A DNA stretch of 64,000 bases, taken from positions 1,278 through 65,277 of the forward strand of contig CAZTZL010000007.1 in assembly GCA_964617625.1 (NCBI GenBank), written 5' to 3'. The first letter of the stretch is position 1. Each line of letters begins with the position of its first letter. Shown here in pieces: positions 586-64,000 of the stretch. The stretch is from an uncultured bacterium (lineage in GTDB: Bacteria; Zhuqueibacterota; QNDG01; DSAB01). The position numbers and the translations under genes were made by a program. The notes under the pieces are model-generated. The model ran no database searches and was not told the origin of the DNA. It saw only the letters and a list, made by a program, of their open reading frames with translations.

Positions 586-1239
586 TTGTCTATGCAAATA
601 AGTGAGATATTCAAACGAGTTGGAAAACTGAAAGTATTTCCTGTCATCACAATTGAGAATACCGAACATGCCGTTCCTCTTGCGGATGCTCTCATAGAAG
701 GCGGGCTGCCCGTTATTGAAATTACGTTTCGTACCAATGTTGCAGCGAATGTGATACAAATGTTGCGGCAGGAGCGGCCCGATTTGCTGGTTGGCGCAGG
801 AACGATTCTAACTGTTGAAAATGTAAGAAAGGCGAAAGATTGCGGCGCTGCTTTCGGGGTAGCACCGGGATTCAATCGAAAGGTTGCAGAGGAGGCGTTG
901 CGTTTGGATTTTCCTTTTTCACCCGGTGTGATGACGCCCACGGATATTGAAGCGGCTCTTGATCTGGGAATCAAAGTGTTGAAATTTTTTCCGGCCGAAG
1001 CAATGGGAGGGATCAACACACTCAAACAGATAGCCGCACCTTATCTGCATACCGGTGTTCGTTTTATACCACTGGGGAAGATTAATCTGAACAATTTTCA
1101 GGAGTATCTAAAAAACGATTTTGTATTGGCAATCGGCGGGTCGTGGATTGCCAGAATTGACCGGATTGCTGCAGGAGATTGGGAAACTATCAAACAAAAT
1201 TGCAGGGAGATCAGGCATCTTTTGGATGGACCAGAATGA
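586..1239 (+). CDS. eda: KDPG/KHG aldolase
   Basis: 217 aa; GLPVIEITFRT, VGAGT, PG..TPTDI and LKFFPAE (Schiff-base Lys) motifs; next to kduI/kduD. Confidence 0.92.
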   Translation: MSMQISEIFKRVGKLKVFPVITIENTEHAVPLADALIEGGLPVIEITFRTNVAANVIQMLRQERPDLLVGAGTILTVENVRKAKDCGAAFGVAPGFNRKVAEEALRLDFPFSPGVMTPTDIEAALDLGIKVLKFFPAEAMGGINTLKQIAAPYLHTGVRFIPLGKINLNNFQEYLKNDFVLAIGGSWIARIDRIAAGDWETIKQNCREIRHLLDGPE

Positions 1240-57185: not shown

Positions 57186-57926
57186 ATGAATGAATCGGAA
57201 CAGAAATCTCTCATCGTCGAAATTGGGGAACGGTTATGGGCGCGCGGATTTGTGGCGGCCAACGACGGCAATATATCCGTCAGAATCAACCCCAGTGAAA
57301 TTCTGGTCACTCCGACGGGTGTGAGCAAGGGCTTCATGATACCGGAGATGATTCTTAAACTAAATTTGAACGGTGAGCCGATTACCAAACATCCGGTATA
57401 TAAACCTTCGAGTGAAACGAAGATGCATCTGGAAATCTATCAACAGAGAGAAGACATTCAAGCCGTGGTACACGCACATCCCCCTTATGCCACCGGTTTT
57501 TCCGTATCGGGCACTGCTCCCAATGCCTGCGTTCTTCCCGAAGCCGTACTGACATTGGGTGCCGTTCCGGTCGCTGATTATGGTACACCATCCACTCGGG
57601 AAATCCCGGCATCGATCCGTTCCTTTGTCGAACAAACCGACGCGATTCTCCTTGCCAATCACGGTGCGTTGACTATGGGGGAGAATTTACTGACTGCTTT
57701 TCACAGGATGGAAACACTGGAACATGTTTCGCAAATCACTTTTCTGGCCATGCAGATTGGGAGAGTCAATGTGATTCCGCAGGACGAGATCGACAAACTG
57801 ATGGAAGTCCGAAAACAAATGAAAATTCCCGGAAGGATCATTGTCCCTAAATCAGAACCTGTTCAAATGAGTGAAAGCGGAATCGAAGCCATTGTAAAAC
57901 GTGTGGCGAAAAAACTGGGAAAGTAA
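57186..57926 (+). CDS. Class II aldolase/adducin-family protein
   Basis: DGNIS.R, PSSE..MH, HAHPP, LANHG Zn-ligand motifs. Confidence 0.9.
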   Translation: MNESEQKSLIVEIGERLWARGFVAANDGNISVRINPSEILVTPTGVSKGFMIPEMILKLNLNGEPITKHPVYKPSSETKMHLEIYQQREDIQAVVHAHPPYATGFSVSGTAPNACVLPEAVLTLGAVPVADYGTPSTREIPASIRSFVEQTDAILLANHGALTMGENLLTAFHRMETLEHVSQITFLAMQIGRVNVIPQDEIDKLMEVRKQMKIPGRIIVPKSEPVQMSESGIEAIVKRVAKKLGK

Positions 57927-58002
57927 ATTGTTATCTAATTATTTGACTGCTTTGTCCAAATTCACAAATCGTCATGACTTTTTAAATGCAACAGGAGTTG
58001 AT

Positions 58003-58872
58003 ATGACAAAAAGAATGTTATTAGTTTTTATTCTCATTGTTGCCTGTTTGCTCCGTGCCGAATCACCTCTTGACCGGGCATACCGGTTGTATGACGAGAA
58101 AAAATATGAAGAGGGTCTGGTTATTGTGGACAGTTTGATTTCTACTAATGGCGGAGACCGGAATACATTGCAGGCAAAATACTATTTGCTGGATGGACTG
58201 AAGCGGTATCCGGAAGCGCTGGAAGCGGCTCTTGCTGCGGAAAAGGTGCATGAAAGAAAATCCCCCTGGGATTGTATCCTGATCACAGAGGCCTGCATCA
58301 AACTGAATCGCATGGAGGATGCGCTGGACTGGCTCGAGAAAGCTGTGGACCGGGGATTTATCAGCTTGAAAACACTTTCCGATTCAATATACATTCCCCT
58401 CCAGACAGATCGCCGGTTTCAATCGCTTGCCGAAACCATCAAGAAAAATATCGGGATCGGCCGGCCCGCCAAAGAGATATCGTTGAACCTGCCGGATGGT
58501 TCGGTGTGGTCCCTTTCGAAACAGAAAGGGAAAGTCGTCCTGATCGATTTTTTTGCCACGTGGTGCCCTCCCTGCCGGGAAGAGATGCCCAATCTGAAAA
58601 GTATCCGCTCAACTTATCCGGAAGATTCGTTCGAACTCATCAGCATCAGTCTGGATTCGGATAGAGAGAAACTGGACGCATTTATCCGGGAACAGGAACT
58701 GAACTGGCATTTTGCTTTTTCGGGAGAAGGATGGAACGATCCTGATGTGAAGCTGTATCATGTCAATTCCATTCCCTCAATCTGGCTCGTGGACAAAAAA
58801 GGAAACTTGCGCTATTTTGATGTGCGGGGAGAAGAGCTTGCTAAAACGGTAAAGAATCTTGTCGAGGAATAA
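58003..58872 (+). CDS. TPR + TlpA/redoxin disulfide reductase
   Basis: Signal peptide, TPR-like helices, DFFATWCPPCREEMP; AGGAG RBS before ATG 58003. Confidence 0.87.
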   Translation: MTKRMLLVFILIVACLLRAESPLDRAYRLYDEKKYEEGLVIVDSLISTNGGDRNTLQAKYYLLDGLKRYPEALEAALAAEKVHERKSPWDCILITEACIKLNRMEDALDWLEKAVDRGFISLKTLSDSIYIPLQTDRRFQSLAETIKKNIGIGRPAKEISLNLPDGSVWSLSKQKGKVVLIDFFATWCPPCREEMPNLKSIRSTYPEDSFELISISLDSDREKLDAFIREQELNWHFAFSGEGWNDPDVKLYHVNSIPSIWLVDKKGNLRYFDVRGEELAKTVKNLVEE

Positions 58873-58897
58873 ATTATTTTGTAATAAGATGAAACAG

Positions 58898-58927
58898 ACC
58901 TCCCGAAGGCAATTACCCCCGGGAGGT
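58898..58927. terminator. Hairpin between convergent genes
   Basis: ACCTCCCG...CGGGAGGT. Confidence 0.45.
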
Positions 58928-58934
58928 AATTCAT

Positions 58935-59273
58935 TTACGGTTTCTTCTGTTCCGGGGCATTTTCAAGCGTAACACCTTCGTCTTCCAGTTTTTTCATATA
59001 TTTTTCGGGATCTTTCTTAAATGTGCTTAAACAATCCTGACAGCAAAAGTAAACCCGCTTGCCGTTATAATCCGCATAGACTTCCTTGTTGATTTCACCG
59101 CCCATAACCGGGCAGACTGTCTGCGTCACTTCAGTGGTCTGAACCGTATCCTGTTTGGCCTTCTCCATTTTCTCCGTGTTGGATTTCGATACGCTCTGCG
59201 CAAAAAGTCCATTGCTGGTCAACAGACCGGTGAAAAGGATCATTCCTGCAGCATAGAGGATTTTGGTTTTCAT
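58935..59273 (-). CDS. Secreted YHS-domain protein
   Basis: QTVCPVMG, GKRVYFCC..C...FKKDPEKY; GGAGG RBS before ATG 59273. Confidence 0.85.
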   Translation of the reverse strand: MKTKILYAAGMILFTGLLTSNGLFAQSVSKSNTEKMEKAKQDTVQTTEVTQTVCPVMGGEINKEVYADYNGKRVYFCCQDCLSTFKKDPEKYMKKLEDEGVTLENAPEQKKP

Positions 59274-59457
59274 AGAACCTCCTGATTGTATTTTATTAGT
59301 ATTTTTCATATTCTTTAATTCTTTTGATTACTTTTAAATGACAATTAAGAGAATGAAGTTCCTTGAATTCAGTGATTTATTCAATCCAATAGTCAATAAA
59401 AGCGGATCATTTTTTCATTTAAAATAACTTGCATATTTTATCCGGATTTGATACGTT

Positions 59458-60264
59458 GTGAGCGAAGTATCAAAAGGAAGCGTTCCCTTGAAAATAAATC
59501 AAGCGAAAATTATCGACACGCATACCCATCTCTGCGATTCATCCTTTGATCCGGACCGGGAGGAAGTTCTCAGGCGTGCAGAAGAGTCGGATGTTGTTTC
59601 CATTTTTACAGTGAGTGAAACGCTTGAGGATGCAGAGAAAAATTTAGTTCTCTCGAATATGTATCCGATTCTTCATCCGCTCGCAGGGTTGTATCCTAGC
59701 TATCTCGATTCAGATCAAGCGGACAAAATCATCCGATGGATCCGGCAGAATCATAACGAGCTTATCGGCATCGGGGAAGTCGGGCTTGACTACTGGAAGG
59801 TGAAGGAATCCCCGGACAGGGAAATACAGAAGGAAATCTTTATCCGTTTTATCGAACTGTCCAAAGAGCTTGATTTGCCGCTCAATGTTCATTCCCGGTC
59901 CGCCGGCAGGCCGGTCATTGATCTTCTGCTGAATTATGATGCACGAAAAGTGCAGCTTCATGCTTTTGACGGGAAAGCTTCGACAGCCCTGCCTGCGGTA
60001 GAGGCCGGATATTTTTTTTCAATTCCGCCCTCCATTTTACGTTCCCGTCAAAAACAAAAATTGGTCAAACTTTTACCGCTCTCCTGTCTGCTGGTTGAAA
60101 CAGACAGCCCGGTGCTCGGTCCGGTTCCCGGCGAGCGAAACGAGCCGAAGAATATCCGCACTGCAATCGAATCTATAGCCGAAATCAAGGATTTGAAATT
60201 CGATGAAGCAGCCGAGACAGTATTTCAGAATACGGTTCAATTGTACGGATCCTTCATTCAATAA
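59458..60264 (+). CDS. tatD: TatD-family DNase
   Basis: DTHTHL, IGEVGLDY, LNVHSR, LHAF, LVETDSP. Confidence 0.92.
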   Translation: MSEVSKGSVPLKINQAKIIDTHTHLCDSSFDPDREEVLRRAEESDVVSIFTVSETLEDAEKNLVLSNMYPILHPLAGLYPSYLDSDQADKIIRWIRQNHNELIGIGEVGLDYWKVKESPDREIQKEIFIRFIELSKELDLPLNVHSRSAGRPVIDLLLNYDARKVQLHAFDGKASTALPAVEAGYFFSIPPSILRSRQKQKLVKLLPLSCLLVETDSPVLGPVPGERNEPKNIRTAIESIAEIKDLKFDEAAETVFQNTVQLYGSFIQ

Positions 60265-60706: not shown

Positions 60707-63631
60707 ATGAAAAAAAATAATCATCTCGCTTTCCGGAATATTTGTAAAGATTCGATGTTTATTCAAATCATTCCTGTTTTCTTTTTACTTCTGGGATTTT
60801 CACGCTCCGCACTGGTTGCTGAGGAAATGAAGTTCAAACGTCTGAATGTCGGTGATGGCCTTTCCCAGAATACCATCACCTGTATTCTGCAGGACCGGAC
60901 CGGATTTATGTGGTTCGGTACCGAAGACGGATTAAACCGGTTTGACGGTTATACGTTTTCTGTCTTTCGGAATGATCCCTCGGATCAAAAAAGTCTGAGC
61001 TACGATGAAATCACATCAATCTGTGAGGATCGGTCAGGAATTTTGTGGATCGGGACCAACGGAGGCGGTCTGAACGCTTATGATCCGGTCACTGAATTAT
61101 TTTGTCGGTTTCGAAAAGATACTACAGATGCAGGGAGTCTGAGTCATGATACGGTAACCGTTGTTTATGAGGATCGTCTGGGAAATCTCTGGGTCGGCAC
61201 TGCCGGAGGGCTGGATCGGATCGACTTGATTAGAGATCCTATTCGATCTGTACAATTCAAACATTACAGACATGACCCTGAAAATAAGTGCAGTCTCAGT
61301 TATAATTATATCACATCGATTCATGAAAGTCAAAGCGGATTATTATGGATTGGAACCGATTTCGGCCTGAACCGATTGGATCCTGATAACGGAACCTGTC
61401 AAAGGTATTACTATGATAAAAAGAATAATAATACTCTGGGAAGCAGTTATATCTTATGTTCGCTTGAAGACCATGCCGGGAATGTATGGATCGGTACGGA
61501 TCTGGGCGGACTGAATTTAATCCGGGAAGAGGATCAATTAAAGCCCACATTCAACCGTTATGCTCATCATCCCGGGATAATCGGAAGCCTGAGCGGGAAT
61601 TCTGTGTATGCCCTCTATGAGGATCCGGCAGGCCAGCTCTGGATAGGAACGGATCAGGGTTTGAACTGGTTCCATGCGAATAAAGGGAATTTTTCCCGGT
61701 ATGAAAATGATCCGGATAATCCGTCCAGCCTGAGCAATAATATGGTTCGCTCGATTTATAAGGACCGTTCCGGTGCATTGTGGATTGGGACGGACGGCGG
61801 CATCAATCAATATTGTGAAGATAAAAAACCATTTTTGCATTATAAGCACGAGCTGAATCATCGAAACAGTCTGAGTCAAAATTATGTCTGGTCGATGTGT
61901 GAAGACCGGTACGGTGATCTTTGGATTGCCACGGATGGAGGCCTGGACCGGTTTATTCGAAAAGAAAACAGATTTGTCCATTATCAAAAAGATCCGAAAA
62001 ATCCGTACGGTCTTCTTACAAATTATATATTATCCATTTGTGAAGATCAATCCGGTACGATTTGGGTTGGATCAAACGGATTCGGACTATATCAGCTGAT
62101 TGATCGGGGAAGCTGGCAGAGAGCCCACCGTTTTCAGCATTATCTCAGTCGTCCGGATGATCCAAACAGTCTGTCCAGCAACTATGTTATGGCATTGTAT
62201 CCGGATCGCTCCGGAAATATCTGGATCGGAACGTGGGATAACGGTATCGATCAGCTTATACCGGGTACGTATAAAAAAGGTGCCGAATTTATTCATTTCA
62301 GGCACGATCTGGATGATCCAGGCAGTCTCAGCAGTAATCGTATTTATATAATTTATCAAGACCGGTCAGGCACAATATGGATCGGGACGGACGGCGGCGG
62401 ATTGGACAAGCTTCTTTTATCAGAAAAAACGGGGTCGCATCAGTTTGTTCATTTTCGGAACGATCCCGATAATCCGATGAGCCTGAGCAAGGACTGTGTG
62501 ATGAGCATCTATGAAGATAGCAAAGGGAGGTTCTGGATCGGGACTTACGGGGGCGGCCTGAATCAGATGGATCGCGCAAGCGGAACATTCAAAAGTTATA
62601 CAGTGAAACAGGGCTTGCCCAATAATGTCATTTATGGGATACTCGAGGATGATCATGGAAATCTCTGGATGAGCACCAATATGGGGATTGTTGAATTTGA
62701 TCCGGAACTGGAAACCTTTCAGAATTATAACGTCAATGATGGTCTCCAGGATTATGAATTCAACACAGGCGCTTACTGCAAGGGCTCCGGTGGAGAGATG
62801 TTCTTCGGAGGTATCAATGGATTTAATGCCTTTCATCCGGATAGCATTCGTCCCAATCCCTATGTTCCTCCTGTTGTCATTACAGATTTTAAACTGTTCA
62901 ATGAATCTGTGCCAGTGAATGTCTTGCGCTCAAAACATGCTATTCTAAAAAAAGCAGTCAGCCAGGCTACTGAAATTCACCTCTCATATAAAGAGAATAC
63001 AATCACCTTTGAATTTGCCGCACTCAGTTATATCTGCCCTGAAGAGAATCAATACCGTACGATTCTTGAAAATCTGGAAAGAAAATGGAATGAAAACGGC
63101 CATCAGCGAACAGTGACGTATGCCAAGCTCCCGCCAGGCAAATACATTTTCAGGGTTCAAGGTTCCAATAATGACGGCATATGGAATAAGGAGGGCAGAT
63201 CAGTCCGGATCATGATTGCGCCTCCTTTCTGGCAGACTACATGGTTTCGTGTTTTCGTGGTTTTCCTGTTCATTGCGTTTTCGCTGGTGGTATTTGAATG
63301 GCGGACCAACATGATACGCAAGCGGGCAAGGGAACTTCAAATAAAAGTCGAGGAGAGAACCAGAGACCTTGAAACGGCCAATAAGGAGCTTCAGGTCGCC
63401 CTGGACAATGTAAAGACACTCAGCGGTTTGCTTCCGATTTGTGCGTCCTGTAAAAAAATCAGGGATGATAAGGGATACTGGCACCAGGTTGAGGAGTATA
63501 TTCACGCGCATTCCAATGCCCAATTCAGCCACGGTCTTTGCCCGGTTTGTTTTAAAAAGATGTATCCGGAATTTGAGGAGATGAAAAAGAAGATTGATTC
63601 GGATGAAAAAGATCATGAACAATCCAATTAA
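60707..63631 (+). CDS. Two-component-regulator propeller + Y_Y_Y membrane sensor with short Cys/His C-terminal domain
   Basis: About 14 repeats of the type I.ED..G.LWIGT..GL, Y_Y_Y (YAKLPPGKY.FRVQGSN.DG.W), TM PPFWQT.WF, coiled coil, LLPICASCKKIRDD...FSHGLCPVC. Confidence 0.88.
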   Translation: MKKNNHLAFRNICKDSMFIQIIPVFFLLLGFSRSALVAEEMKFKRLNVGDGLSQNTITCILQDRTGFMWFGTEDGLNRFDGYTFSVFRNDPSDQKSLSYDEITSICEDRSGILWIGTNGGGLNAYDPVTELFCRFRKDTTDAGSLSHDTVTVVYEDRLGNLWVGTAGGLDRIDLIRDPIRSVQFKHYRHDPENKCSLSYNYITSIHESQSGLLWIGTDFGLNRLDPDNGTCQRYYYDKKNNNTLGSSYILCSLEDHAGNVWIGTDLGGLNLIREEDQLKPTFNRYAHHPGIIGSLSGNSVYALYEDPAGQLWIGTDQGLNWFHANKGNFSRYENDPDNPSSLSNNMVRSIYKDRSGALWIGTDGGINQYCEDKKPFLHYKHELNHRNSLSQNYVWSMCEDRYGDLWIATDGGLDRFIRKENRFVHYQKDPKNPYGLLTNYILSICEDQSGTIWVGSNGFGLYQLIDRGSWQRAHRFQHYLSRPDDPNSLSSNYVMALYPDRSGNIWIGTWDNGIDQLIPGTYKKGAEFIHFRHDLDDPGSLSSNRIYIIYQDRSGTIWIGTDGGGLDKLLLSEKTGSHQFVHFRNDPDNPMSLSKDCVMSIYEDSKGRFWIGTYGGGLNQMDRASGTFKSYTVKQGLPNNVIYGILEDDHGNLWMSTNMGIVEFDPELETFQNYNVNDGLQDYEFNTGAYCKGSGGEMFFGGINGFNAFHPDSIRPNPYVPPVVITDFKLFNESVPVNVLRSKHAILKKAVSQATEIHLSYKENTITFEFAALSYICPEENQYRTILENLERKWNENGHQRTVTYAKLPPGKYIFRVQGSNNDGIWNKEGRSVRIMIAPPFWQTTWFRVFVVFLFIAFSLVVFEWRTNMIRKRARELQIKVEERTRDLETANKELQVALDNVKTLSGLLPICASCKKIRDDKGYWHQVEEYIHAHSNAQFSHGLCPVCFKKMYPEFEEMKKKIDSDEKDHEQSN

Positions 63632-63765: not shown

Positions 63766-64000
63766 ATGAAAAAGGTGATTCTTGCCGTTGTCATTTTAAT
63801 CGTACTTGTCATCGTGATAGGAGGAATTTACGTTTTTACCCATCGTGATCAGCTGATAGCGAAGGTTATGGAAAAAAGCCTCGGATCACTTCAAAAGGCA
63901 ATGATCGGCAATTTGCAGACAGATGAGAAAAAAGCGGAGGCGGAAGCGATTTTCAGGAAATTGGGAGAAAAAATCAAAACAGGTGCGATTGATAAAAAAG
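63766..64000 (+). CDS. Hypothetical membrane-anchored protein, truncated by the window end
   Basis: AAAGGAG RBS; MKKVILAVVILIVLVIVIGGIYVF...; no stop before 64000. Confidence 0.6.
   Translation, partial: MKKVILAVVILIVLVIVIGGIYVFTHRDQLIAKVMEKSLGSLQKAMIGNLQTDEKKAEAEAIFRKLGEKIKTGAIDKK

Follow-up and report, generated by a model that had tools for sequence, protein, structure and literature searches.

The receptor gene studied here lies at 60707..63631 of a 64,000-nucleotide stretch (hereafter the window) of contig CAZTZL010000007.1, from an uncultured bacterium of the phylum Zhuqueibacterota. It encodes a double beta-propeller sensor with a transmembrane (TM) helix, of which the sole cytoplasmic module besides a coiled-coil linker is a tail of about 50 residues carrying four cysteines. 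Our results support the view that this tail, its mechanism aside, is an undescribed output module. It belongs to a very large family, occupies the C-terminal output position, is coupled to its inputs through coiled coils of heptad-phased length, and resembles in profile the C-terminal domain of Fur. As to how it works, we tentatively favour a Zn-clamped dimeric protein-interaction switch, driven by the coiled coil and acting on an unlinked conserved target, a reading that we hold to be slightly less than evenly probable. The receptor itself is an ordinary member of the family, and it is in the family that the interest lies.

The tail in the output slot of the receptor

The gene is an intact open reading frame (ORF) on the forward strand, with an ATG start, 974 encoded amino acids and zero internal stops, as an earlier note on this DNA had read it. 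Pfam assigned 13 stretches of the product to Reg_prop (PF07494, E 1.5e-81), and a crude hydropathy count gave 2 hydrophobic segments ahead of the tail. No HisKA, HATPase_c, GGDEF, SpoIIE/PP2C or AraC/helix-turn-helix (HTH) match was obtained from Pfam, even at E <= 1; NCBIfam, likewise without HisKA or HATPase at E <= 1, added only a sub-threshold PorZ-like propeller match. These scans agree with the earlier description of a propeller, Y_Y_Y, TM and coiled coil that lead to no catalytic or DNA-binding output. The four cysteines (C912, C915, C945 and C948) are arranged as CxxC-x29-CxxC, with conserved histidines at 935 and 942, and the frame stops 26 residues past C948. Residue V902 is encoded at 63410 and C948 at 63548-63550, so the tail lies where it had been placed (about 63410-63550).

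Hybrid two-component sensors of Bacteroides are an example of the Reg_prop/Y_Y_Y sensors to which this receptor is related. With the kinases, phosphatases and cyclases of that group it shares the propellers, Y_Y_Y, the single TM helix and the coiled coil, and among the matches listed the nearest relatives of its sensor part are 36-49 % identical over about 830 residues. In these listed relatives the slot after the TM helix is filled by HisKA/HATPase (with or without REC and AraC), HisKA_3, SpoIIE, GGDEF, sigma54-AAA+ or adenylate cyclase; the window protein alone lacks such an output, so that the expectation of an enzymatic or DNA-binding output on such sensors holds for the relatives listed. 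Measured against a sensor kinase or hybrid system, Reg_prop, Y_Y_Y and TM are present, and HisKA (or HisKA_3) and HATPase_c are absent. In contrast to its relatives, the window protein carries none of HisKA, HATPase, REC, AraC, SpoIIE, GGDEF and AAA+, and has the Cys4 tail only.

The same-genus orthologue (L114, 975 aa, 83 % identical) has the identical end point and is followed by the same small gene. Orthologues or relatives of 956-1118 aa with conserved architecture were found in other genera, and in one from another family (L120, 975 aa, 43 % identical) the first cysteine stands at an equal distance from the PPFWQT motif (74th residue). The orthologues thus stop at the same place and do not continue into a kinase; a continuation of that kind is what the earlier note had named as counting against its reading. 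Taken together, these observations support the tail as occupant of the output slot of the receptor.

Divergent tails were noticed on two proteins of about 1,040 aa (L124:2163-5288 and L125:3920-7066). They have Cys or Tyr in place of the conserved His that precedes the second CxxC, and do not end in KKLYPE; the distance from the DLT motif to the first cysteine is still 35 residues.

Size, conservation and distribution of the tail family

A profile of 55 tails (A1), searched against 1.84 billion representatives of 50 %-identity clusters, retrieved 24,380 proteins at E <= 0.001, 20,130 at E <= 1e-10 and 4,281 at E <= 1e-30. With the 65-residue tail alone, at least 7,990 longer proteins were matched (7,990 of 8,000 scored candidates). 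A tail was also matched in 545 of 551 short candidates (35-114 aa). Since contigs as long as 36 kb to 4 Mb encode some of them, stand-alone helix+tail proteins exist. The x29 spacing between the Cys pairs was found in 478 of the 479 modules of 448 distinct tail proteins, 442 of which have no more than 50 residues past the last cysteine. Three of the six exceptions to this terminal position are proteins with two matched stretches in the profile search, and a second copy was therefore probably missed in them by the Cys pattern.

In a sample of 242 tails, biased toward the best-scoring members, about 25 positions are more than 95 % conserved, and the consensus is VKTLSGLLPICASCKKIRDDKGYWNQIESYIxxHSEAEFSHGICPECAKKLYPEF. 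The window tail has every invariant position (P-I-C-x-x-C-K-K-I-R-D-D-x-G-Y-W ... F-S-H-G-x-C-P-x-C), and the tails at 80 loci with named records are 60-76 % identical to it. These loci include Thermodesulfobacteriota, Nitrospirota, Chloroflexota, Bacteroidota, Ignavibacteriae, Calditrichota, Verrucomicrobiota, Kiritimatiellia, Lentisphaerae, Spirochaetota, Leptospirales, anammox Planctomycetota, Acidobacteriota, Zixibacteria, Nitrospinae, Marinimicrobia and others, and the carriers belong mostly to sediment or anaerobic lineages; relatives of Geothrix or Desulfobulbus are represented as well. In the phylum of the window itself the tail was found in 81 of 167 genomes (51 of 105 of high quality) with 1-7 matches each; at the level of families, it is present in all sampled genomes of some and in none of others (e.g. 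0/14). The window genome has three copies, carried by the receptor, a 249-aa protein and a 269-aa REC protein. In the 249-aa protein (L002:1480-2229, minus strand) the N-terminal part is helical and matches ferritin-like proteins only weakly (E 0.0076), and its gene is flanked by a methyltransferase gene and an ABM monooxygenase-like gene; the protein could be a di-iron or redox sensor.

Domain partners of the tail

The architecture sample comprised 75 tail proteins from many named phyla, 74 from 73 loci plus the 249-aa paralogue, and Pfam detected a known output domain in none of them. Among the inputs, REC was found in 19, PAS in 31 and Reg_prop with Y_Y_Y in 3; HAMP, dCache, sCache, CHASE, GAF, periplasmic binding proteins, 7TM, VUPS, PocR, MEDS and TPR also occurred, and 15 proteins had no Pfam domain. 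The profile and the catalogue of architectures, both proposed in the earlier note as checks, thus place the tail C-terminal to diverse inputs. That note had the tail recur on PAS and receiver proteins of anaerobes; PAS and REC carriage was borne out, but the family is not confined to such proteins, and about half of it is membrane-anchored.

Proteins with two tails are tandem arrays of input plus tail (REC-tail-REC-tail, MASE6-tail-MASE6-tail and PocR-tail-PocR-tail), and no effector follows the tail. They (P0353, P0004, P0009, P0362 and P0371) include a propeller sensor of 1,405 aa, and in a two-tail REC protein of 272 aa, 22 residues separate the last cysteine of the first tail from the first cysteine of the second. 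It is possible that two-tail proteins are natural single-chain versions of a tail dimer.

The 269-aa REC-tail protein of the window genome (L003:37-3189) is encoded next to a REC-HisKA-HATPase protein, and on its other side lies a kinase C-terminus with a fused REC. It is 42 % identical to the REC-HisKA-HATPase protein over 182 residues, and the two diverge inside the coiled coil. This pair of paralogues is a natural swap of the tail for a transmitter.

Comparison of the tail with known domains

The 93 C-terminal residues, scanned by themselves, gave no match close to the cut-offs of Pfam (best E 0.031, 14.5 bits against a cut-off of 31) or NCBIfam (best E 0.016, 15 bits against 124). In a sequence profile search of the PDB nothing convincing was found, the best match (E 0.0045) being a 20-residue stretch of glycerophosphotransferase, and the ESM Atlas returned unnamed small clusters only, with no usable named match. 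Full-text literature, within the one collection searched, held no description of the module; the sole match to a peptide string was an unrelated defensin review. The characterised domain that would have contradicted the claim of an undescribed tail was therefore not encountered among family models, PDB sequences and folds, or papers.

Two known families with similar motifs were considered and rejected. The ZAS domain is defined by H-x3-C-x2-C, whereas the tail reads H-x2-C-x2-C (H942-G-L-C945-P-V-C948), and no zf-HC2 match was obtained at E <= 1. Rubredoxin (PF00301) gave no Pfam match, and an hhalign value of 19 % over 9 columns, despite the CxxC-x29-CPxC pattern.

Coupling of the tail through a phased coiled coil

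In 111 of 116 cases the distance from the DIT motif of the PAS domain to the first cysteine of the tail is 35 residues; it is 21 in one, 42 in two, and 64 and 99 in the others. From the end of the REC model the distance is 30, 37, 44, 58 or 79 residues in 24 of 32 cases, and the remainder consists of four that are one residue off and four at 82. Linker lengths to the tail are therefore heptad-quantised.

The signalling helix, or S-helix, is described (PMC1592074) as a coiled coil of about 40 residues that connects a sensor to the module downstream of it; a central heptad bears a conserved ERT signature, and effector domains are placed after the helix. Residues 866-905 of the receptor contain the signature (E883-R884-T885) and are helical in an AlphaFold2 (AF2) model of residues 866-962, in which a continuous helix (2-38 of the 97-aa fragment) runs up to the SGLLP turn with a predicted local distance difference test score (pLDDT) of 86-97. 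R884 precedes the first cysteine by 28 residues, i.e. four heptads. ERT occurs within 70 residues upstream in 42 of 451 tails, and its distance is a multiple of seven in 27 of these 42; for control tripeptides the corresponding counts were 0/8, 0/14 and 5/14.

Such constancy of heptad phase implies a module for which helical register is important. Since a phased coiled coil is the grammar of dimeric transmitters (DHp, GGDEF), we infer that the tail works as a pair, the two copies being held together at the end of a parallel coiled coil. Like the S-helix-coupled transmitters (DHp/HisKA, GGDEF) described in PMC1592074, the tail follows an ERT-bearing parallel coiled coil of heptad-quantised length, and on a paralogous chassis the tail and HisKA-HATPase can take each other's place. 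Unlike them, it has only about 50 residues, and neither a phospho-acceptor His box, an ATP- or GTP-binding domain nor a known chemistry.

Similarity to the C-terminal domain of Fur

The best relationship found for the tail is with the Zn(Cys)4-type C-terminal domain of Fur. Against a set of 25 whole Fur-family proteins from relatives of the window genome, hhalign aligned the tail profile with a probability of 81.5 % (E 1.1e-5) over 41 columns, in which the two CxxC pairs and the residues flanking them are included; when only the C-terminal domain of Fur was used, the probability was 88.8 % and the score 33.3. When the columns were shuffled 200 times with the four Cys columns fixed, the score fell to 14.0 +/- 3.2 (maximum 24.2), so that the native value was reached in 0/200, and the reversed Fur domain scored 12.1. 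The comparison with rubredoxin, which also has x29 and the CPxC knuckle, gave the low value mentioned above, and the DksA zinc finger gave 3.7 % over 12 columns. These controls indicate that the similarity between tail and Fur is specific and extends beyond the cysteines.

The likeness to Fur, PerR and Zur thus consists of two CxxC pairs with similar flanks (IC..C..I.D ... F.GICP.C.KK). In contrast to these proteins, the tail has no winged-helix DNA-binding domain and terminates a sensor, from which a coiled coil leads into it. Membership of the Fur family proper (PF01475) was rejected, as no FUR match and no winged helix were found and a coiled coil precedes the tail.

Genomic context and the search for a partner

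Genes within +/-4 positions of 74 tail genes at 73 loci were clustered. The only large cluster consisted of two-component proteins (55 tails and 36 neighbours). The catalogue of neighbours suggested in the earlier note therefore yielded recurrent two-component genes but no conserved partner gene. Many genomes have a single tail gene, and networks in which tails of different proteins contact each other can therefore not be obligatory.

A lineage-specific context was observed in one family of the same phylum (f26), where the sole tail gene encodes a PilJ-like sensor of about 299 aa with TM, coiled coil and tail. At 6 of 10 loci (L182, L184, L185, L186, L188 and L192) this gene lies within a heme-copper oxidase operon, in the order Rrf2 - COX2 - sensor - COX1 - COX3 - COX4 - COX3 (L182:4939-10722), and in L182 the end of the sensor gene overlaps the start of COX1. 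The oxidase and Rrf2 neighbours had no match among the ORFs of the 80 cross-phylum loci.

Proposed mechanism

In the mechanism that we tentatively favour, the double beta-propeller and Y_Y_Y would bind an extracellular ligand in the periplasm, presumably a glycan or oligosaccharide by analogy with the hybrid two-component sensors of Bacteroides. The single TM helix runs directly into a parallel coiled-coil S-helix of about 40 residues with ERT, which ends in the module of about 50 residues, whose four cysteines are most probably arranged around one structural Zn ion. On ligand binding the coiled coil would shift in register or rotate, the two tail modules of the dimer would be rearranged as a result, and the rearrangement would switch binding to a conserved cytoplasmic partner encoded away from the sensor. 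Zn binding is suggested by the four invariant cysteines and the Fur-like profile match, dimerisation of the tails by the phased coil.

That the output would be contact with a protein, rather than with nucleic acid, is suggested by the composition and location of the module. Its net charge is -0.86 +/- 1.69 (n = 450), and of the 283 tail proteins with 150 aa or more, 139 have a predicted TM segment; near-neutral charge and TM anchoring are more in keeping with protein contact or chemistry than with binding to DNA. A conserved external target is suggested by polar positions that hardly vary from phylum to phylum. The earlier note had proposed an undescribed Zn-binding output that acts through a partner protein, a nucleic acid or a redox switch; an undescribed module does stand in the output slot, and of the proposed routes our data favour protein contact over nucleic acid. 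By way of functional analogy, the C-terminal Zn tail of SecA and the anti-sigma factor CsfB are small Zn modules that dock onto a conserved partner. They are, like the tail, tiny, Cys-rich, terminal or autonomous and highly conserved, but have no sequence or significant structural relationship to it; CsfB was among the weak matches of the tail model in the VIA structure search (Z 2.1).

Several results count against a Fur-derived switch with a separate target. No non-signalling neighbour recurs at the 73 loci, the other clusters being present in at most 3 loci each, and the high conservation could also reflect catalysis, cofactor binding or frequent horizontal transfer. The AlphaFold check proposed in the earlier note was run on monomer fragments and gave a confident helix, but the two AF2 models (pLDDT 76 and 84) differ in the secondary structure of the module, the second having a beta-alpha-beta core, and no significant fold match was found. 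For model 1, Foldseek against the PDB had a best E of 2.9, with four Fur-family chains (PerR, Zur, YlaN-Fur) at E 5.5-7.2 and probability 0.03-0.06; the wide VIA search had a best Z of 2.9 and 6 chains at Z >= 2, none of them Fur, and in a second look 0/17 chains reached Z >= 2. For model 2 only coiled-coil matches were returned (Z <= 5.6 over residues 1-41); these searches were dominated by the long helix, and the Cys4 part was therefore barely tested in them. The PDB sequence search reached PerR only at E 2.3. Compared with the Fur proteins of the set, the tail has 7 fewer residues separating its Cys pairs (x29 against x36) and lacks their His-rich motif ahead of the first CxxC. A profile match of 81.5-88.8 % combined with shorter spacing and no Fur chain at Z >= 2, i.e. 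profile similarity without structural confirmation, suggests that the tail probably descends, distantly, from the Zn(Cys)4 dimerisation domain of Fur and is not a Fur family member.

Alternative explanations

It is improbable, in our estimate, that the tail is instead a redox- or metal-sensing switch, with Fe bound as in rubredoxin, a thiol/disulfide switch, or a second metal site made of the conserved His, Asp and Glu. The receptor would then gain an input for intracellular redox state or metal, or its signal would be converted by the release of metal. Aligned rubredoxins have the same CxxC-x29-CxxC spacing and CPxC knuckle, but the similarity of the profiles is weak, as noted above. Histidines at +23 (95 %) and +30 (100 % of 242) are conserved along with D8, D9 and E17, and hhalign pairs the His at +23 with one that is conserved in Fur, 8 residues ahead of the second CxxC, and that serves as a metal ligand in some Fur proteins; in the divergent members L124, L125, P0371 and the second tail of P0009, however, the His is replaced. 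The prevalence of sediment and anaerobic carriers, the weakly ferritin-like N-terminus of the 249-aa paralogue, and the position of the only tail sensor of family f26 in a heme-copper oxidase operon with an Rrf2 regulator would all suit such a switch. Against it, the module stands at the output place, at the end of a phased S-helix, in proteins that have no other output.

The absence of a partner gene near tail genes, the existence of stand-alone helix+tail proteins, and the embedding of the f26 sensor between oxidase subunit genes would also be compatible with a structural dimerisation cap taken from Fur-type proteins and without output, the N-terminal domains then acting as phosphate sinks, decoys, scaffolds or regulatory subunits of membrane complexes. 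The C-terminal domain of Fur is a dimerisation domain, and the profile link to it is the best that the tail has. We nevertheless give this explanation a low probability, because a mere clamp need not hold about 25 polar and aromatic positions near-invariant across phyla, whereas the aligned Fur proteins show 38 % mean column identity over their whole length. Moreover, the coiled coil already dimerises, its constant heptad phase implies a module that depends on register, and proteins composed of a periplasmic sensor, TM and tail would have no means of acting.

Many Cys4 ribbons bind nucleic acids, and the tail has a conserved KK.R past the first knuckle and KK past the second; with the f26 sensor lying within a plausible target operon, the receptor might be viewed as a membrane-tethered one-component regulator of the ToxR/CadC kind, its tail serving as a small DNA- or RNA-binding Zn-finger. 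This we consider very unlikely, as the mean net charge of the module is slightly negative, about half of the family is anchored in the membrane, an uncommon arrangement among DNA-binding outputs, neither HTH nor any known nucleic-acid-binding family was matched, and the closest relative is the dimerisation domain of Fur, not its DNA-binding domain. Finally, although the listed close sensor relatives all carry long cytoplasmic outputs, a decayed or truncated histidine kinase with a meaningless remnant as its tail was rejected as having practically no likelihood, since the tail is a complete copy of a strongly constrained module, the same-genus orthologue and relatives in other families end alike, and the next gene downstream, as in L114, encodes a small membrane protein.

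Implications for bacterial signalling

The tail module probably marks an unstudied signalling route. A broader proposition, which we regard as conceivable but rather doubtful, is that histidine kinases, cyclic-nucleotide enzymes, chemoreceptor tips and PP2C phosphatases are joined in the tail by one more major class of transmitter, in which a Fur-derived, Zn-clamped dimer switch would connect many types of sensors (REC, PAS, HAMP, Cache, CHASE, 7TM, propeller) in many bacterial lineages to one highly conserved cytoplasmic target, possibly a metal- or redox-linked regulator. Tail proteins are currently annotated by their input domains only; if the tail is a true transmitter, sediment bacteria and anaerobes would have a sizeable part of their sensory proteins signalling by a route uncounted in current censuses, and finding its target would open a new pathway. 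If the link to Fur is confirmed, the oligomerisation domain of a regulator would have been recruited as a signalling module. Being small, autonomous and linked through a phased coil, the module could also serve as a compact output for engineered sensors.

Features of the receptor gene and its neighbours

Table 1. Coordinates of the receptor gene and of the parts of its product in the window
Feature	Residues	Position (bp)	Strand	Basis
Whole gene, receptor of 974 aa		60707..63631, stop codon included	+	ORF call; orthologue L114, 975 aa, 83 % identical
N-terminal hydrophobic segment (signal peptide or membrane anchor)	~17-38	60755..60820	+	Reading of the translation
Periplasmic double beta-propeller region with Reg_prop repeats	~40-745	60830..62940 (approximate bounds)	+	PF07494; bounds from the repeat pattern
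Y_Y_Y domain	776-837	63032..63217	+	Pfam PF07495, E 3.7e-15
PPFWQT motif	839-844		+	Reading of the translation
TM helix, directly after PPFWQT	846-865	63242..63301	+	Sequence reading; comparison of relatives
Cytoplasmic signalling helix (S-helix) with ERT signature	866-905	63302..63421	+	AF2 helix; ERT
Cys4 tail module SGLLPIC...CPVCFKKMYPEF	906-956	63422..63574	+	Profile, alignments and AF2 models
C-terminal extension, charged, 18 residues, not conserved	957-974	63575..63628	+	Alignment columns beyond +45

The synteny around the gene, with TatD, YHS and TPR-thioredoxin-like genes upstream and the gene of a small membrane protein downstream, holds within the genus only. Upstream, a TPR protein with an AhpC/TSA thioredoxin-like domain (plus strand) and a convergent YHS-domain protein of 124 aa (minus strand) with a signal-like N-terminus are encoded at 57901-59309, followed by TatD at 59458-60264; all three are syntenic in the same-genus genome. 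The small downstream gene (63766-64000, plus strand) lies 135 bases past the receptor gene and is cut by the end of the window, so that 78 aa are encoded here as compared with 119 aa in L114; its product has an N-terminal hydrophobic helix and no family match, and is conserved in the same genus only.

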